Assembly (NCBI GenBank): GCA_947624985.1
Contig: CANQMO010000012.1
Span: 19,549-83,548, forward strand
Source: an uncultured Oscillospiraceae bacterium
GTDB taxonomy: Bacteria; Bacillota; Clostridia; Oscillospirales; Oscillospiraceae
Direction: 5' to 3'
Length of the DNA: 64,000 bases
The translations under genes were made by a program, and so were the position numbers. Under the pieces are notes generated by a model. The model saw only the letters and a list, made by a program, of their open reading frames with translations. It had not been told where the DNA came from and searched no databases. Positions 12,477-50,263 of this stretch are shown here, in pieces (the first letter of the stretch is position 1; each line of letters begins with the position of its first letter).

Positions 12477-12622
12477 ACCATGGCCTCCTCGGGAAAAGTT
12501 CCTTATTATTATAAAACCTATCGGGCAAAAGGGCAATTATTGAAGTTGTATAAAATTTGCCGTCCGCAACATGGCTGCCTGACGCCATAGAATGGAGGGG
12601 CGGAGATATTGTAAAAAAATGC

Positions 12623-12651
12623 TTTACAATGACATAAGATTCTGTTATAAT
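12623..12651 (+). promoter_or_regulatory. Promoter of the DAACS symporter gene
   Basis: TTTACA (12623-12628), a 17-nt spacer, then TATAAT (12646-12651). Confidence 0.55.
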
Positions 12652-12691
12652 ACATCCATCTGGACAAAATGGAAAAGGAGTGTCGATCATA

Positions 12692-13939
12692 ATGTCTGCA
12701 CTGAAAAAACTCAAGCTGCCCGCGTGGATCTTCATCGGTATGATCCTGGGTATCGTAGTCGGTCTTGGCTGTATGTACGGCATGGCCGACGGCGGGGCGT
12801 TCACCACCGCGTATCTGAAGCCCTTCGGGGACATCTACATCAACCTTCTGAAATTCCTGGTGGTCCCCGTTGTGCTGACCAGTATCGTCAGCGGCGTGGT
12901 GAGCCTGGGCGACATCAAGCGGGTGGGCTCTATTGGCTGGAAGACCATCGTCTACTATCTGGCCACCACCGCCGTGGCCATCGTCATCGGCCTGGCGTTC
13001 GCCTCCGCCGCCAACGGCATGCACCTGTTCCCGGTGCTGGAGGTCTCCGGCCTGGAGTATGAGGCCAGTTCCTCCAACGTCATGGACGTGATCAAGGGCA
13101 TTTTCCCCAGCAACATGTGGCAGAGCTTTTCCGACGCCAATATGTTGCAGGTCATCGTGGTGGCCCTGTTCCTGGGCGCCGGTATCCTGATGGCCGGCGA
13201 CGCGGGAAAGAAGTTCTCCGACGTGATGGAGAGCGCCTATGCCGTGGTCATGAAGGTCATGGGCTTCATCATCAAGATCACCCCCATCGGCGTGTTCTGC
13301 CTGATGGCCGACGTGGTGGCCGTGAACGGGCCCAAGATCGTGGGCTCCCTGCTGCTGGTCATCGCGGTGGCGTATCTGGCCTATGTGGTCCACTTCGTGC
13401 TGTGCTACGGCGTGTCCGTGAGCGCTCTGGGCAAGGTGGGCTTCGGCAAGTTCGTCAAGGGTATCTACCCGGCCATGGTCGTGGCCTTCACCACCACCTC
13501 CTCCGCCGCCACCCTGCCTGTGACCATCGAGTGCTCCAATAAGATGGGCTCCGACCCCGAGGTCAGCTCCTTCGTGCTGCCCTTGGGCGCCACCATCAAC
13601 ATGGACGGCACCGCCATTTACATGGGCGTCACCTCCATCTTCATCGCCACCTGCTACGGCGTCAGCCTGACGCTGGGCCAGATGGCCATGATCGTTCTGA
13701 CCGCCACCCTGGCCTCCATCGGCACCGCCGGCGTGTCCGGCGCGGGCATGATCATGCTGGCCATGGTGCTGGAGAGCGTGGGTCTGCCGGTAGAGGGTAT
13801 CGCCCTGATCGCCGGCGTCGACAAGCTGTTTGATATGGGCCGTACCACGTTGAACATCGTGGGCGACTCCACCTGCGCGCTGTACATGTCCCGTCTGGAC
13901 GCCAAGCGCGCTGCACGTCTGGCTGCTGCTAAGAAGTAG
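12692..13939 (+). CDS. Dicarboxylate/amino acid:cation symporter (DAACS/GltP family)
   Basis: MSALKKLKLPAWIFIGMILGIVVG...YINLLKFLVVPVVLTSIVSGV..., SSAATLPVT, GATINMDGTA and GVSGAG motifs of the sodium:dicarboxylate symporter family. Confidence 0.85.
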   Translation: MSALKKLKLPAWIFIGMILGIVVGLGCMYGMADGGAFTTAYLKPFGDIYINLLKFLVVPVVLTSIVSGVVSLGDIKRVGSIGWKTIVYYLATTAVAIVIGLAFASAANGMHLFPVLEVSGLEYEASSSNVMDVIKGIFPSNMWQSFSDANMLQVIVVALFLGAGILMAGDAGKKFSDVMESAYAVVMKVMGFIIKITPIGVFCLMADVVAVNGPKIVGSLLLVIAVAYLAYVVHFVLCYGVSVSALGKVGFGKFVKGIYPAMVVAFTTTSSAATLPVTIECSNKMGSDPEVSSFVLPLGATINMDGTAIYMGVTSIFIATCYGVSLTLGQMAMIVLTATLASIGTAGVSGAGMIMLAMVLESVGLPVEGIALIAGVDKLFDMGRTTLNIVGDSTCALYMSRLDAKRAARLAAAKK

Positions 13940-45598: not shown

Positions 45599-46528
45599 TT
45601 ACAGCGTTTCCGTTACGCGCTTTTTGCGCCTGCCGGTGTTGTCGGAGCCCCGTATCTCCTCATGGTAGAAATAGTCCACGATGACGGGGTGACCCTGTGG
45701 GACCCGCCCATATGGCATTTCATTGTCTACGAAGGGGCAGTCGTATCTCTCCGCCATTTCCTCTGCTTTCTTCTCCAGCATTTGAAAATAGCTGCGGTCA
45801 TGCCTGTTATATATTTCGTCGTACAGCGGCACAAGCTCCGGACGCTTTTCCGCGATATAGTCCATGATGGTCTTTTTGAACCCGCCCCGCAGATTCAGGT
45901 TCTCCAGCCAGAACAGGTCGCACTGATCCTTGACCTGCTCAAATATCGCCTCAAAGTCTGTGATCCCCGGAAAGACGGGGGACACGAAGCAGACGGTACG
46001 TATACCGGCGTCGTAGACCTGCTTCATGGCGGCGATACGACGCTCGATGCTGACGGCGCTGTCCATGTCGTCCTTGAAGCTCTCGTCCAGCGTGTTGACC
46101 GACCAGGACACCGTCACCTGTCCCAGATCCTTCAAAAGGTCGATGTCCCGGAGGACCAGATCGGATTTCGTGCAGATCAGGATGTCCGCGCCGCTGCCCC
46201 GAAGCTGTTCAAGGAGTCTACGGGTGGCCCCGAATATCTCCTCCTGGGGGTTGTAGCCGTCGGTCACCGAGCCGATCACCACCCGCTGCCCGGCGTACTT
46301 TTTCGGGTTTTTGATCTCCGGCCAGTGCTTCACATCCAGGAACGTCCCCCATTCCTCCGTGTGGCCGGTGAAGCGCTTCATAAACGAGGCGTAGCAGTAC
46401 CTGCACCCGTGGGTGCAGCCCACGTAGGGATTGACGGAGTATCCGCCCACCGGGAGGCTGGACTTCGTCATAATGTTTTTCGTATCCACATCGGCGATGA
46501 GAATACCGTTATCCGTCATTTGCGCCAT
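45599..46528 (-). CDS. Radical SAM enzyme, SplB/COG1533-like (candidate radical SAM mobile pair protein B)
   Basis: GGAGGAG sits 8 nt before ATG 46528. ...SVNPYVGCTHGCRYCYASFMKRF carries CX3CX2C. The protein is 309 aa, and its start overlaps the stop of the upstream rSAM gene by 13 nt. The long N-terminal extension in the track is Gly/Pro/Arg noise. Confidence 0.75.
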   Translation of the reverse strand: MAQMTDNGILIADVDTKNIMTKSSLPVGGYSVNPYVGCTHGCRYCYASFMKRFTGHTEEWGTFLDVKHWPEIKNPKKYAGQRVVIGSVTDGYNPQEEIFGATRRLLEQLRGSGADILICTKSDLVLRDIDLLKDLGQVTVSWSVNTLDESFKDDMDSAVSIERRIAAMKQVYDAGIRTVCFVSPVFPGITDFEAIFEQVKDQCDLFWLENLNLRGGFKKTIMDYIAEKRPELVPLYDEIYNRHDRSYFQMLEKKAEEMAERYDCPFVDNEMPYGRVPQGHPVIVDYFYHEEIRGSDNTGRRKKRVTETL

Positions 46529-47214
46529 TTTCTCTGCTCCTCCAAAACCTTGTTGTAAGCGTCGGGCAGTTCCTGCACGGGAGCATTCTCGCCCATGATG
46601 GGGGCCAGGTCCTCCTTCCAAAACACCGGGATATGAAGCGCGTGGGCCAGCTCCGTCAGGGAATACACCCATTCCGGCGCTGTTCGGACTTTCCGGCTCA
46701 TTGGGCCGGTCATGGTGCCGATGACCACCCAGTCTATGCCTCTGAGATCCACTTGGCCGGGATCGTCGAACAGCGGCTCGAAGGTCACATGATAATGCCT
46801 GGCCCGCACATTTTCCCGGAGCGCGTCGATCCGCCAGAGCTCCGACCTTCTTGTGACCGTCACGCCGAACCAGGCGTTTTCCAGGTCCGTGTCGATGTCC
46901 AGCAGGTCCGGCCGCTTGGAAAGAAACAGAAACTGGTGCTGGGGATTTTCCGCCATCTTGGCGAATACCTGTTCCCGCCACGCCGGGTCCCATCCAGCCA
47001 GGTCGCTCATGCCGGTCAGGAGAAAATTCTGCGGTTTTTCCTTCTCCATCAGCCGCAGCTTACCCGGAAAGAACTCCGGCCTGGAAAAATCGTCGATCAT
47101 ATGGTATCGCTTGACGTTGTTCCGGGCATAGCAGTAGGGACAGCCGACCGTGCAGCCGATCACCAGATTCATATTCTGTATCTGGTCCTTGATACAGACG
47201 TACATATTATCCAT
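46516..47214 (-). CDS. Radical SAM enzyme, DUF5131/phage gp37-like (candidate radical SAM mobile pair protein A)
   Basis: MDNMYVCIKDQIQNMNLVIGCTVGCPYCYARNN carries CX3CX2C. The protein is about 232 aa. ATG 47214 overlaps the last codons of the Rrf2 gene (alternative ATG 47205). Confidence 0.7.
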   Translation of the reverse strand: MDNMYVCIKDQIQNMNLVIGCTVGCPYCYARNNVKRYHMIDDFSRPEFFPGKLRLMEKEKPQNFLLTGMSDLAGWDPAWREQVFAKMAENPQHQFLFLSKRPDLLDIDTDLENAWFGVTVTRRSELWRIDALRENVRARHYHVTFEPLFDDPGQVDLRGIDWVVIGTMTGPMSRKVRTAPEWVYSLTELAHALHIPVFWKEDLAPIMGENAPVQELPDAYNKVLEEQRKWRK

Positions 47215-47800
47215 GGCAGGAATGGCCGCCGCAGGTGTGCCCGCCGCAGCCGTGGGCGCCTGTGCCGTGCTCGTGGTCATGGTGGTCGCAGTGTACGTTC
47301 GCATCATAGCCCAGCGTGCCGGCCAGCAGCGCGGCCACGGCCTCGTCCGCGGCGCCCTGGACGCCGCCGTAAAGCCGGATGCCTGCCTTTTGGCGGTAGG
47401 TGTCGATGATGTCCTGCAAAGTGATGGCGCTCATACGGTCCTCCGCAGCCCTCTGTATCTCGTCGTAATAGTCCCGCAGGGCCAGCTGGATGTTCACGCC
47501 CACGCCGCAGTCGGGATTGGTGTGGGTATCCTGGTGCAGGATGGGCTTGTTCCCCTCGATGGCCCGGTAAACGTCCAGCAGGGAGATGTCACCGGGCTCT
47601 CTGGCAAGGGCGGGGCGGGGGTGGCCCTTCACGCTGGCCAAAAGCCCGGCCTTTCGCAGAGCGCTCATCAGCTGCCGGATATAGGCGGGGTTGGTCTGCA
47701 CGCTCTCGGCGATCCGCTCGCTGGTGAGGGCCGCGCCCGGGTGGAGGGCGAGAAAGGCCAGCACATGCACCGCGTCGCTGAGCTTGGTGGAGTATTTCAA
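47207..47800 (-). CDS. Rrf2-family transcriptional regulator with His/Cys-rich C-terminal tail
   Basis: (L/M)KYSTKLSDAVHVLAFLALHPGAALTSERIAESVQTNPAYIRQLMSALRKAGLL is an Rrf2 winged helix. The tail HCDHHDHEHGTGAHGCGGHTCGGHSCHG has 9 His and 4 Cys in 28 residues. The start is TTG 47800 or GTG 47809, after GGAGAGAAAGGG. Confidence 0.8.
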   Translation of the reverse strand: MKYSTKLSDAVHVLAFLALHPGAALTSERIAESVQTNPAYIRQLMSALRKAGLLASVKGHPRPALAREPGDISLLDVYRAIEGNKPILHQDTHTNPDCGVGVNIQLALRDYYDEIQRAAEDRMSAITLQDIIDTYRQKAGIRLYGGVQGAADEAVAALLAGTLGYDANVHCDHHDHEHGTGAHGCGGHTCGGHSCHG

Positions 47801-47833
47801 AGCCGTCACCCTTTCTCTCCGGATGTTATTTTT

Positions 47834-47862
47834 ATTATAACAGCATATTGACAGAAACACAA
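47834..47862 (-). promoter_or_regulatory. Promoter of the Rrf2/rSAM operon
   Basis: Minus strand reads TTGTGT (47862-47857), a 17-nt spacer, then TATAAT (47839-47834). Confidence 0.6.
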
Positions 47863-47876
47863 GGCCGTGCTATGCT
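47848..47876 (+). promoter_or_regulatory. Promoter of the Sir2-Sir2-HD operon
   Basis: TTGACA (47848-47853), a 17-nt spacer, then TATGCT (47871-47876). Its -35 box and spacer overlap the -35 box and spacer of the divergent promoter. Confidence 0.6.
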
Positions 47877-47877
47877 T

Positions 47878-47904
47878 TTGCTGTAAAATAAAAAATAACA
47901 GCAA
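47878..47904. promoter_or_regulatory. Inverted repeat TTGCTGT-N13-ACAGCAA (candidate Rrf2 operator or 5'-leader hairpin)
   Basis: 7-bp arms flank an all-A/T 13-nt centre. It lies between the -10 box and ATG 47905 and ends 1 nt before the ATG. Confidence 0.4.
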
Positions 47905-48891
47905 ATGAAAGGCGCGATCGCTGTGAGCTACTATGATAATATGGTCATGCAGGCGCAGATGAAGTATTCCATGTATTACGACACCTACGCCGCCGGGCGC
48001 ACCCCCTACCGGCTTTCCACCCGGCCGCCGCTGCCCTACGAGGAGCAGATCGGGCGGCTGGTGGAGGAGATCGCCGCAGCGGACTGCGTGCTGGTGGGCG
48101 GGGGCTCCGGCCTGTCCGCCGCCGGGGGCGGGGATTTCTATTACGAGGACAACGAGTCCTATCGGAAGTATTTTGGGAAGTATGCCCAGAAGTATCACTT
48201 TAAGGGCGCCTTCGCCGGCATGATGCATCCCTGGGCCAGCCGGGAGGAGTTCTGGGGGTATCTTGCTACGTTCCTGCACACTACCCAGACCGCTCCCGTC
48301 CGCAGGCCCTATCTGGATCTGGATACGCTTCTGCGGGGCAAGGACTTCTTCGTCCTCACCACCAACCAGGACACCCAGTTCGTCAAGCTCTATCCGGAGG
48401 ACAAGGTGGCGGAGATCCAGGGCGACCACCGCTTCTTCCAGTGCGCGGCCTGCTGTACGGACGACACATGGGACGCGGTGGAGCCGGTGCGGCAGATGGT
48501 CGCCGCCATGGGAGAGAGCACCGCCGTGCCCCGGGGCATGGTGCCCCGCTGTCCCCACTGCGGCGGCGAGGCGTTCCCCTGGGTGCGGGGTTACGGCAAT
48601 TTCCTGCAGGGGAAGAAGTATGACGAGCAATATGAAAAGGTCTCCCGGTATATCCTGGCCCACAAGGAGGATCGCATCCTGTTCCTGGAGCTGGGCGTGG
48701 GCCGCCTCACGCCCATGTTCATCCAGGAGCCCTTCTGGAACCTGACGCTGGCGTTCCCCAGGGCCCGGTATATCGCCGTCAACGACAAGTATAACTATCT
48801 GCCGGCGCAGATCGAGGACAAGGGCATGGTGATCGTGGCCGACATCGCCGACGTGCTGCGTGACGCGGTGGCGGCAAAAGGGAAGGAGTGA
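47905..48891 (+). CDS. Sir2-family (sirtuin-like, NAD-dependent) protein, paralogue 1
   Basis: Rossmann motif CVLVGGGSGLSAAGG, TTNQDTQF, EIQGDHRFFQC (His present) and a Zn ribbon CAACC...CPHCGG. There is no SD before ATG 47905, so the exact start is uncertain. Confidence 0.7.
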   Translation: MKGAIAVSYYDNMVMQAQMKYSMYYDTYAAGRTPYRLSTRPPLPYEEQIGRLVEEIAAADCVLVGGGSGLSAAGGGDFYYEDNESYRKYFGKYAQKYHFKGAFAGMMHPWASREEFWGYLATFLHTTQTAPVRRPYLDLDTLLRGKDFFVLTTNQDTQFVKLYPEDKVAEIQGDHRFFQCAACCTDDTWDAVEPVRQMVAAMGESTAVPRGMVPRCPHCGGEAFPWVRGYGNFLQGKKYDEQYEKVSRYILAHKEDRILFLELGVGRLTPMFIQEPFWNLTLAFPRARYIAVNDKYNYLPAQIEDKGMVIVADIADVLRDAVAAKGKE

Positions 48892-48896
48892 GCGTT

Positions 48897-49727
48897 ATGG
48901 ACCTGGCGCCTGTTGCGGGGAAGATAAGGCAGGCGGACGCCATCCTGATCGGGGCCAGCAACGGCCTGTCCATCACGGAGGGGCTGCACCTGTTTGCGGA
49001 CAACGGGGCGTTTGAATACCTGTTCGGGGACTTCAGGCAAAAATACGGCCTGCGGTGCATCCTGCAGGGAGCCGGGGCCCGCTGGCCCTCCGAGGAGGAG
49101 AAATGGGCCTTCTGGAGCCGCCTCATCCACCACTACTGCGGGCAGTATGAACCCACCCAGGTCATGGAGGACCTGAAGGCCATCGTGGGCGGGAAGGATT
49201 ATTTCATCGTGACCTCCAACGGGGAGGGACATTTTGAGATGAGCGGCTTTGCCCCGGAGAAGATATATGAGATCGAGGGGAACTGGCTGACCATGCAGTG
49301 CGCTGCCGCCTGTCACGACACGCTCTATCCCACCCTGGAGCTGGCGGAAACGCTGGCGGCGTCAGAGCGGGACGGCAGGGTCCCCACAGAGCTGGTGCCC
49401 CGCTGTCCCCGCTGCGGCGGACCCATGCGCGTGCACATGGTGGGGGAGAACTACATCCCGGACGATGCCGCACGGGAGAGGTTTGAGGCGTTCCTTGAAG
49501 AATACCACGGAAAGAAGCTGGTGGTGCTGGAGCTGGGGATCGGCTGGCGCAATCAGCTTATCAAGGCGCCGCTCATGGAACTGGCGGCCCGGGAGCCGGA
49601 GGCGGTCTACGTGACCGTCAACCTGGGCGAGGTCTATATCGCCGAGGACATCCGGGAGAAGTCCTTTGGCCTGGACGGGCCGCTGAGCGATGTGCTGTCG
49701 GCCCTGCGAGAGGCATGCGGAGCATGA
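48897..49727 (+). CDS. Sir2-family protein, paralogue 2 (catalytic-His position is Trp)
   Basis: GGGAAGGAG RBS overlaps the previous stop. AILIGASNGLSITEG, VTSNGEGHF, EIEGNWLTMQC (W where paralogue 1 has H) and a Zn ribbon CAAAC...CPRCGG are present. Confidence 0.65.
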   Translation: MDLAPVAGKIRQADAILIGASNGLSITEGLHLFADNGAFEYLFGDFRQKYGLRCILQGAGARWPSEEEKWAFWSRLIHHYCGQYEPTQVMEDLKAIVGGKDYFIVTSNGEGHFEMSGFAPEKIYEIEGNWLTMQCAAACHDTLYPTLELAETLAASERDGRVPTELVPRCPRCGGPMRVHMVGENYIPDDAARERFEAFLEEYHGKKLVVLELGIGWRNQLIKAPLMELAAREPEAVYVTVNLGEVYIAEDIREKSFGLDGPLSDVLSALREACGA

Positions 49728-50263
49728 ACCTGCCGGAAACTGTCCGCAGGGACTATGAGAAGTGGTGCGCCTTCCTGGGGGAACAGGTGACATTTTCCCT
49801 GAAAAACACAGAAAAGCACACGAAGGACCACTGTGCCCGGGTGCTGCTGTACGCGCTGCTGATCGCGGAGAAGATGGACCTGCCCCGAAGCGAGCGGGAG
49901 GTGCTGTGCGCCGCGGCGGTGTTCCACGACTCCCGCCGGCAGGACGACTGGCTGGATGTGGGCCACGGCCGCCGGGCGGCGGACTATTACCGGGACTTTT
50001 GCCGGACGGGCGGGCTTGCCTGTGACGAGCGGGTATATCAGATCATGGCCTGGCACGACCGGCCCGGCGCCGAAGGCGAGGCGGCCATGGGCGAACTGGA
50101 AAACGGCGTGCTGCTCTACCGCATATTCAAGGACGCGGACGGTCTGGACCGGTATCGGCTGGGTCCCAACGCCCTGGATGTGGACCGGTTGAGAACGGCG
50201 GAGGCACGCAGCCTGACCGGCCTTGCCCGGCAGCTCGTGCGGGAGGGTCCAAAATCGAACTGA
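49724..50263 (+). CDS. HD-domain metal-dependent phosphohydrolase
   Basis: ATGA overlap with the previous stop. H..(HCARV)...VFHDSRR...GHG...WHD...FKDADGLDRYRLG carries H-HD-H-D type residues. Confidence 0.7.
   Translation: MNLPETVRRDYEKWCAFLGEQVTFSLKNTEKHTKDHCARVLLYALLIAEKMDLPRSEREVLCAAAVFHDSRRQDDWLDVGHGRRAADYYRDFCRTGGLACDERVYQIMAWHDRPGAEGEAAMGELENGVLLYRIFKDADGLDRYRLGPNALDVDRLRTAEARSLTGLARQLVREGPKSN

Follow-up and report, generated by a model that had tools for sequence, protein, structure and literature searches.

In divergent gene pairs of the Tn10 tetR/tetA and merR/merT type, a regulator gene and its target operon stand back to back, with overlapping promoters and with operators for one protein. 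Among the Rrf2 regulators, SifR, YwnA, HypR, and SaiR are single-Cys repressors with a 19-bp operator, TGTAA-N9-TTACA (PMC9218516, PMC6067689). Modification of this Cys (Cys102 in PMC9218516) by quinones or oxidants causes regulators of this class to release DNA (PMC9218516, PMC6067689), and the operator of HypR overlaps the -10 box (PMC6067689). For operons of the class-M sirtuins (SirTM), a connection with the response to oxidative stress has been described (Rack et al. 2015, PMC4518038).

Here we describe a locus in which an Rrf2 gene and sirtuin-like genes are arranged back to back. It is located in a 64,000-nt stretch of DNA from an uncultured Oscillospiraceae bacterium (hereafter the window), to which positions refer unless a related locus (L032, L128, etc.) is named.

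Results

Interlocked promoters

The control region of the divergent pair (47810–47922) has Rrf2 on its left, transcribed leftward, and the sirtuin-like genes on its right, transcribed rightward. The two promoters that an earlier note on this DNA had proposed, TTGACA-17-TATGCT on the plus strand and TTGTGT-17-TATAAT on the minus strand, were confirmed in all their motifs by direct reading. The promoter of the sirtuin-like operon (47848..47876, plus strand) comprises the -35 box TTGACA (47848–47853), a 17-nt spacer, and the -10 box TATGCT (47871–47876). The latter is of the extended type, TGcTATGCT (47868–47876, with the TG at 47868–47869), and the predicted start site is at ~47883. The promoter of the Rrf2 operon (47834..47862, minus strand) comprises the -35 box TTGTGT (47862–47857), a 17-nt spacer, and the -10 box TATAAT (47839–47834), with a predicted start site at ~47827. 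Its weak -35 box, with only 3/6 matches, is offset by a perfect extended -10 box in which TG precedes TATAAT (TGTTATAAT, 47842–47834). Each -35 box falls within the spacer of the opposite promoter, again as the earlier note had stated, and the predicted start sites are ~56 bp apart.

A promoter scan recovered the plus-strand promoter (10/12 matches plus TG); the minus-strand promoter was missing from the scan list because of the 3/6 match of its -35 box. Over 8 kb, 2 promoter-like sites were obtained versus 2.6 expected, which by itself is not above chance, and no further promoter-like site was found at 45.6–47.8 kb. The promoters are credible because of their conservation and not because of single-sequence statistics.

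The footprint alignment was composed of 72 distinct metagenome intergenic sequences (one of them that of the window itself) together with those of L032, L035, and L040. The gap between the two operons, 95 bases, was strongly conserved. Both promoters were retained across ~78 distinct related intergenic sequences, a figure that, like the other conservation counts, overstates independence because many of the metagenome loci are mutually related. This retention supports the claim that the two divergent promoters form one control region. The block at 47822–47854 (GATGTTATTTTTATTATAACAGCATATTGACAG), which contains TTGACA and the minus-strand -10 box with its TG, was essentially invariant. In the minus-strand -35 box the TTG was conserved (TTGCGN in relatives), and in the plus-strand -10 box the TG and TA...T were conserved (TGcTAAAAT in most relatives). 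Compared with L128, identity was 33/33 at 47822–47854 and 10/10 at 47891–47900, against 43–53% at third-codon positions and ~46–50% in spacers. Judged by this conservation, both promoters are real, and they are predicted to be in use.

Predicted operators O1 and O2

The conserved parts of the control region resolve into a 19-bp dyad, TGTWA-N9-TWACA, present in two copies that flank the promoters. The predicted operator O1 (47824..47842; TGTTA-N9-TAACA) lies over the minus-strand -10 box and start site, at ~-59 to -41 relative to the plus-strand promoter. The predicted operator O2 (47882..47900; TGTAA-N9-TAACA) covers ~+1 to +18 of the plus-strand promoter. Both have zero mismatches to the dyad. 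Among related sequences with TTGACA, O1 is fixed 24 nt upstream of this box. At least two dyads were present in 75/78 distinct intergenic sequences, the second one (≤2 mismatches) being located 58–65 bp from O1 in 74/78 and 43 bp from it in L195; altogether, 155 dyad matches were observed versus 23 in shuffles. Within the leader, AAAAATAACA at 47891–47900 was invariant in the footprint alignment. Two dyads were also kept in L195, L196, and L198, where Sir2a identity is only 57–74%, and O2 plainly repeats O1 in inverted form in L196 and L198. In the majority clade, degeneracy is seen in the left half of O2 (AGTAAG), and O2 there has 1 mismatch to TGTWA-N9-TWACA and 2 to the stricter TGTWAW-N7-WTWACA.

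In sequence, O1 and O2 match the published operator TGTAA-N9-TTACA of the single-Cys Rrf2 class. Of all the evidence, this agreement in half-site, spacing, and position argues most strongly that O1 and O2 are the operators of the local Rrf2 protein. Thus, where a single bound regulator had been expected to affect both promoters, the neighboring Rrf2 is very likely that regulator, and it would use two operators rather than one site.

The inverted repeat TTGCTGT (47878–47884) / ACAGCAA (47898–47904), which the earlier note had placed over the Sir2 leader, is present, with arms of 8 bp and not 7 bp (TTTGCTGT / ACAGCAAA; 47877..47905). When the intergenic region was shuffled by dinucleotides, 17% of the shuffles contained a perfect 7-bp inverted repeat, and the repeat by itself is not significant. 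The 7-N13-7 repeat is clade-specific, as the majority clade has TTTGAAGT as its left arm and ACACC as its right arm, and it is a clade-specific outer extension of O2. A shared role for this single repeat was not borne out: its arms are unconserved, and the conserved element is the 19-bp dyad in two copies, one per promoter.

In the 2.28-Mb genome, exact dyads numbered 6 versus 5 in the control, i.e., chance level, and two of the six are those located 58 bp apart in this control region. The exact O1 palindrome occurs a single time. A larger Rrf2 regulon was not supported, given the uniqueness of the O1 palindrome and the chance rate of the dyad.

Elsewhere in the window (region 12608–12660), a perfect dyad TTGTAAA-N7-TTTACAA (12609–12629), also of the TGTAA-N9-TTACA type, overlaps the -35 box of a consensus-like promoter, TTTACA-17-TGtTATAAT. 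This promoter precedes a gene of the sodium:dicarboxylate symporter family (12692–13939; PF00375, E 7e-120). The dyad could mark a second target of the local Rrf2 or a target of its paralogue (G000:C3:87524-87916).

The Rrf2 regulator

The YwnA-type Rrf2 gene (47207..47809, minus strand) starts with GTG at 47809, preceded by the Shine-Dalgarno sequence GGAGAG (47820–47815). The closest solved structure to its Rrf2 domain (residues 7–136; PF02082, E 7.8e-34) is YwnA of B. subtilis (PDB 1XD7, E 2.8e-25). Cys101 is the sole Cys of this domain and was invariant in 8 homologues (54–95% identity). Its position, where the dimerisation helix begins, corresponds to that of the YwnA Cys in NPKCPVG. No three-Cys Fe-S cluster motif was found in Rrf2. 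Because the regulator is of the cluster-less single-Cys class, its signal is, by analogy, likelier to be electrophiles or oxidants than metals.

Rrf2 in its natural form is 144–150 aa long. In the window, it carries in addition a His/Cys tail, which was acquired when a 257-bp deletion fused it to the C-terminal part of a NifX-like gene. Comparison of 47207–47380 with L032:6880-7320 revealed that the deletion joins Rrf2 codon ~144 to the last ~56 codons of the NifX/NifB-like gene (PF02579), which is intact in L032 and L035. None of the relatives examined had the His/Cys tail on its Rrf2. Metal sensing via this tail was considered and rejected, since the tail is a deletion artefact derived from the neighboring gene.

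The sirtuin-like genes and their linkage to Rrf2

The start codon of Sir2a had been placed at ATG 47905, without a Shine-Dalgarno sequence. This was the wrong start codon: the gene starts at GTG 47923 behind GAAAGG (47907–47912; both elements within 47907..47925, plus strand). The ATG at 47905 reads ACG in L032 and L035, and in L040 and all metagenome relatives an ATG is aligned to GTG 47923, behind a conserved GAAAGG(A).

Sir2a (47923..48891, plus strand) is a class-M (SirTM-like) sirtuin in which the TTN...QG...R active-site pattern is kept. It matched SpySirTM (PDB 5A3A), an ADP-ribosylating class-M sirtuin, with E 1.6e-39, and the QG in place of the catalytic His is kept. Taking the defining SirTM residues from PMC4518038, we found that TTNQD, EIQGDH, and the Arg of VRGY in Sir2a align to TTNADN, HIQGEY, and KRNE in SpySirTM. 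In the alignment to 5A3A, the catalytic position corresponds to the Gln of EIQGDH and not to its His. Sir2b (48888..49727, plus strand), whose start overlaps the Sir2a stop, is a divergent SirTM-like paralogue. It has EIEGNW, with EG for the essential QG, and TSNGE for TTNxD, and so departs from the SirTM active-site pattern; judged from these residues, Sir2b is probably not a standard SirTM catalyst. The third gene of the plus-strand operon, an optional one, encodes an HD-domain protein (49715..50263; PF01966, E 1.8e-5).

Pfam yielded no match for Sir2a or Sir2b, which were identified by PDB sequence search instead. A tblastn search with a linked macrodomain protein found nothing in the window or in L112–L191, and megablast of 45599–50263 against a plasmid collection gave no match. 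None of the PADLOC defence models matched Sir2a, Sir2b, or the HD protein, and a reading of the locus as a defence system was dropped, as PADLOC gave only weak DUF5131-type matches, to the radical SAM proteins. The genome contains a second SirTM-like gene (G000:C11:84042-84863), 36% identical to Sir2a and of the ~290-aa type, which is presumably the canonical macrodomain-linked form.

Metagenome contigs contained >570 relatives of Sir2a, the best 80 of which were 76–80% identical. Rrf2 was divergent and upstream of Sir2a in 77 of these 80, the other 3 contigs stopping within 130 nt, and hence in 77/77 judgeable loci. The Rrf2 proteins of the relatives were ~71% identical, with a match spanning residues 3–141 only. 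All 60 loci with enough downstream sequence have Sir2b downstream of Sir2a; in 50 of them, a third SirTM-like paralogue (293 aa; L128:6978-7859) lies between Sir2a and Sir2b; it is absent, with Sir2b directly following Sir2a, in the window, L032, L035, and ~10 metagenome loci. The HD gene was present in only 4 of the 80 metagenome relatives (L112, L141, L159, and L174). The sampled homologues of the class at ~35% identity were all plain macrodomain-SirTM pairs (29/29), and no Rrf2 match was found within 1.5-kb flanks on each side of these 29. The conserved unit is therefore Rrf2 back-to-back with SirTM-like paralogues, with the radical SAM pair described below and the HD gene as optional members. 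Of the six genes that had been proposed to form one module, Rrf2, Sir2a, and Sir2b hold together (77/77), whereas the HD gene and the radical SAM pair are optional.

In the distant relatives L195–L199 (57–74% identity), Rrf2 was again divergent from the sirtuin genes. The cargo behind Rrf2 varies in these loci (an aldo-keto reductase, or nothing), and the neighboring genes are typical of mobile elements (relaxase, integrase, P-type ATPase). In L195:1-3700, the cluster adjoins relaxase, NikA-like, and Abi_2 genes, and in L198:600-5340 it adjoins an integrase, a P-type ATPase, HMA, and an HxlR/flavin reductase unit. The contexts of L195 and L198 suggest that the cluster moves on mobile elements with metal and redox cargo.

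The genes located 3' of Rrf2 on its own strand were also observed to vary widely (L040:1867-5016, L112:4195-5413, L121:4823-5185). They encode a patatin, a CGGC-domain protein, two P-loop ATPases, and an aldo-keto reductase with Fe-S motifs. A small Cys-containing protein without a Pfam match recurs behind Rrf2 in L040, L112, and L120. Redox-related cargo seems to use the Rrf2 promoter as a landing pad.

The radical SAM mobile pair

Behind Rrf2, the minus strand of the window encodes radical SAM mobile pair protein A (46516..47214; TIGR04471, 408.8 bits versus a cut-off of 355) and protein B (45599..46528; TIGR04470, 592.4 bits versus a cut-off of 410). The start of the pair A gene overlaps the stop of the Rrf2 fusion, and the pair B gene overlaps that of pair A by 13 nt (46516–46528). 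Because the genes overlap end to end from Rrf2 onward and no other promoter-like site was found, the radical SAM genes of the window probably depend on the minus-strand promoter.

For pair B, the best 80 genome loci showed 85–93% identity across very different taxa. The earlier note had asked whether radical SAM pairs lie back-to-back with Sir2 genes elsewhere. They do in 3 of these 80 loci, which share the layout of the window (L032 and L035, from one MAG, and L040), whereas in 72/80 Sir2 and HD genes were absent within 8 kb. In the 5 others, a distant SirTM-like gene was located downstream. Four of them (L037, L058, L059, and L071; from rabbit-gut Oscillospiraceae MAGs) have pair B, a macrodomain gene (PF01661, E 3.6e-39), and a SirTM gene in this order on the same strand (e.g., L037:3029-5542), and in L076 a macrodomain-SirTM pair lies ~5 kb further downstream of pair B. 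An N-terminal remnant of a macrodomain gene was observed after pair B in L040 (L040:6877-7170).

Viewed from the sirtuin cluster, a radical SAM pair was located within ~4 kb in 14 of the 24 contigs with ≥3.5 kb downstream. In the common arrangement, the pair follows Sir2b in the same orientation and is preceded by a divergent HxlR regulator of its own and a flavin reductase gene; the pair was on the Rrf2 side in 2/29. In L128-type loci, no dyad was found in front of the cassette. The radical SAM pair is a mobile cassette that, judging by gene order, is co-transcribed cargo only in the clade of the window. Its recurrent, variously arranged adjacency to SirTM-type genes is oddly frequent. No paper mentioning the radical SAM mobile pair was found in the literature searched.

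Discussion

From the elements, their conservation, and the gene linkage, all observed directly, we infer binding, promoter use, and signal as follows. The Rrf2 protein is likely a repressor that controls both operons via O1 and O2 at the interlocked promoters. An Rrf2 dimer would most likely bind both dyads. Occupancy of O1 would repress the operon of Rrf2 itself, and occupancy of O2 would repress the sirtuin operon. By analogy with SifR and HypR, modification of the single conserved Cys by an electrophile or oxidant would cause Rrf2 to leave the DNA, and both operons would be switched on together. The leftward operon of the window and of its closest relatives has acquired the radical SAM pair as cargo, which would be placed under the same switch; this is not the case in most relatives. 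The link of SirTM operons to oxidative stress fits a thiol-sensing repressor.

The locus could also be explained, along the lines of the earlier note, by a single operator, TTGCTGT-N13-ACAGCAA, with mutually exclusive binding of RNA polymerase and an obligate module of six genes. The repeat does exist and lies across the predicted plus-strand start site, the promoters do interlock, and the radical SAM genes overlap Rrf2 in a layout that recurs in L032, L035, and L040; moreover, the pair lies within ~4 kb of the sirtuin cluster in 14/24 long contigs, in several arrangements. However, the repeat arms are unconserved beyond the clade of the window, Sir2 and HD genes are missing within 8 kb at 72/80 loci of the radical SAM pair, the pair usually follows its own HxlR/flavin reductase unit with no Rrf2 dyad in front, and HD occurs in only 4/80 relatives, so we consider this explanation unlikely. 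At the RNA level, the same repeat could form a leader hairpin of Sir2a that controls translation or stability, and a hairpin with an 8-bp stem (-10.3 kcal/mol) is indeed predicted to end 1 nt 5' of the Shine-Dalgarno sequence. It does not stand out from shuffles (z = -0.85; 32/200 shuffles fold equally well), is absent in L128, folds in L196 no better than that sequence's own shuffles, varies in its arms without compensation in the majority clade, and has no match in Rfam. This RNA-level role was rejected as highly improbable.

The conserved blocks might alternatively consist of promoter elements only (-35 box, extended -10 box, UP-like A/T tracts), with the targets of Rrf2 elsewhere. O1 does overlap the minus-strand -10 box, A/T-rich leaders are common, and the dyad occurs genome-wide at chance rate. 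Yet conservation extends to TGTTAT at 47824–47829, downstream of the minus-strand -10 box, and to AAAAATAACA at 47891–47900, where no promoter element is expected. In addition, each of the two sites is an inverted copy of the other in L196 and L198, and O1 and O2 agree with the operator established by experiment for this Rrf2 class, which makes the promoter-only explanation quite improbable. Dual function is known for some Rrf2 proteins, and Rrf2 bound at O1 (centred at ~-50 of the plus-strand promoter) might activate the sirtuin operon while repressing its own. The position of O1 fits an activator site, and the plus-strand -10 box of the window, TATGCT, is imperfect. Against such activation, a plus-strand promoter with a consensus -35 and an extended -10 box should need no activator, O2 over the start site is in a repressor position, and SifR and HypR are repressors; we regard it as very unlikely. 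Repression of both operons through O1 and O2 is thus the preferred explanation.

This explanation provides a testable regulator, operator, and likely signal class for a sirtuin-like cluster that is abundant in gut metagenomes (>570 relatives) and whose function is undescribed. The analysis also corrects the start codon of Sir2a and identifies the radical SAM pair as optional cargo here, not as a part of an obligate six-gene module. More speculatively, the Rrf2/SirTM-like cluster might represent an undescribed ADP-ribosylation system, widespread in gut Firmicutes, that is induced by electrophiles or oxidants and has several paralogues and no macrodomain, with the uncharacterised radical SAM pair as a functional partner of SirTM-type systems and not a chance neighbor. 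We hold this to be possible but doubtful. The partnership is favored by the fact that the pair repeatedly adjoins the cluster, in at least five arrangements, and that in some genomes it immediately precedes a canonical macrodomain-SirTM pair.

Comparison with known systems

The closest relatives of the regulator are SifR of S. pneumoniae, HypR of S. aureus, and YwnA of B. subtilis, with which it shares the Rrf2 winged-helix fold and one conserved Cys at an equivalent position. As with SifR and HypR, a 19-bp dyad that agrees in half-sites and spacing lies over a -10 box or start site, and the regulator gene adjoins its target. In contrast to SifR, HypR, and YwnA, the putative targets here are SirTM-like paralogues and variable cargo instead of quinone or flavin reductases or MerA. 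Interlocked divergent promoters are flanked by two predicted operators, the half-sites are often TGTTA / TAACA, and the Rrf2 of the window has a foreign His/Cys tail.

Sir2a is homologous to SpySirTM, with QG kept, as in the SirTM/macrodomain operons (Rack et al. 2015, PMC4518038). Unlike those operons, the window has no macrodomain, GcvH-L, or LplA2 gene; instead, the cluster contains paralogues in tandem, two or three in number, of which one has EG in place of QG, together with sometimes HD and always Rrf2. The radical SAM genes score well above the curated cut-offs of TIGR04471 and TIGR04470, and their 85–93% identity across taxa fits the name "mobile". They differ from other such pairs in being fused into the Rrf2 operon, whereas elsewhere the pairs have other upstream contexts, including HxlR/flavin reductase.

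With respect to the divergent tetR/tetA and merR/merT types, the regulator family and the operator are different, and the geometry of the overlap, with the -35 boxes in the opposite spacers, is predicted. No paper linking Rrf2 with SirTM was found in the literature searched. The layout, a repressor back-to-back with its target and one operator per promoter, is an ordinary, textbook one, and it is the pairing of regulator and target that is new.
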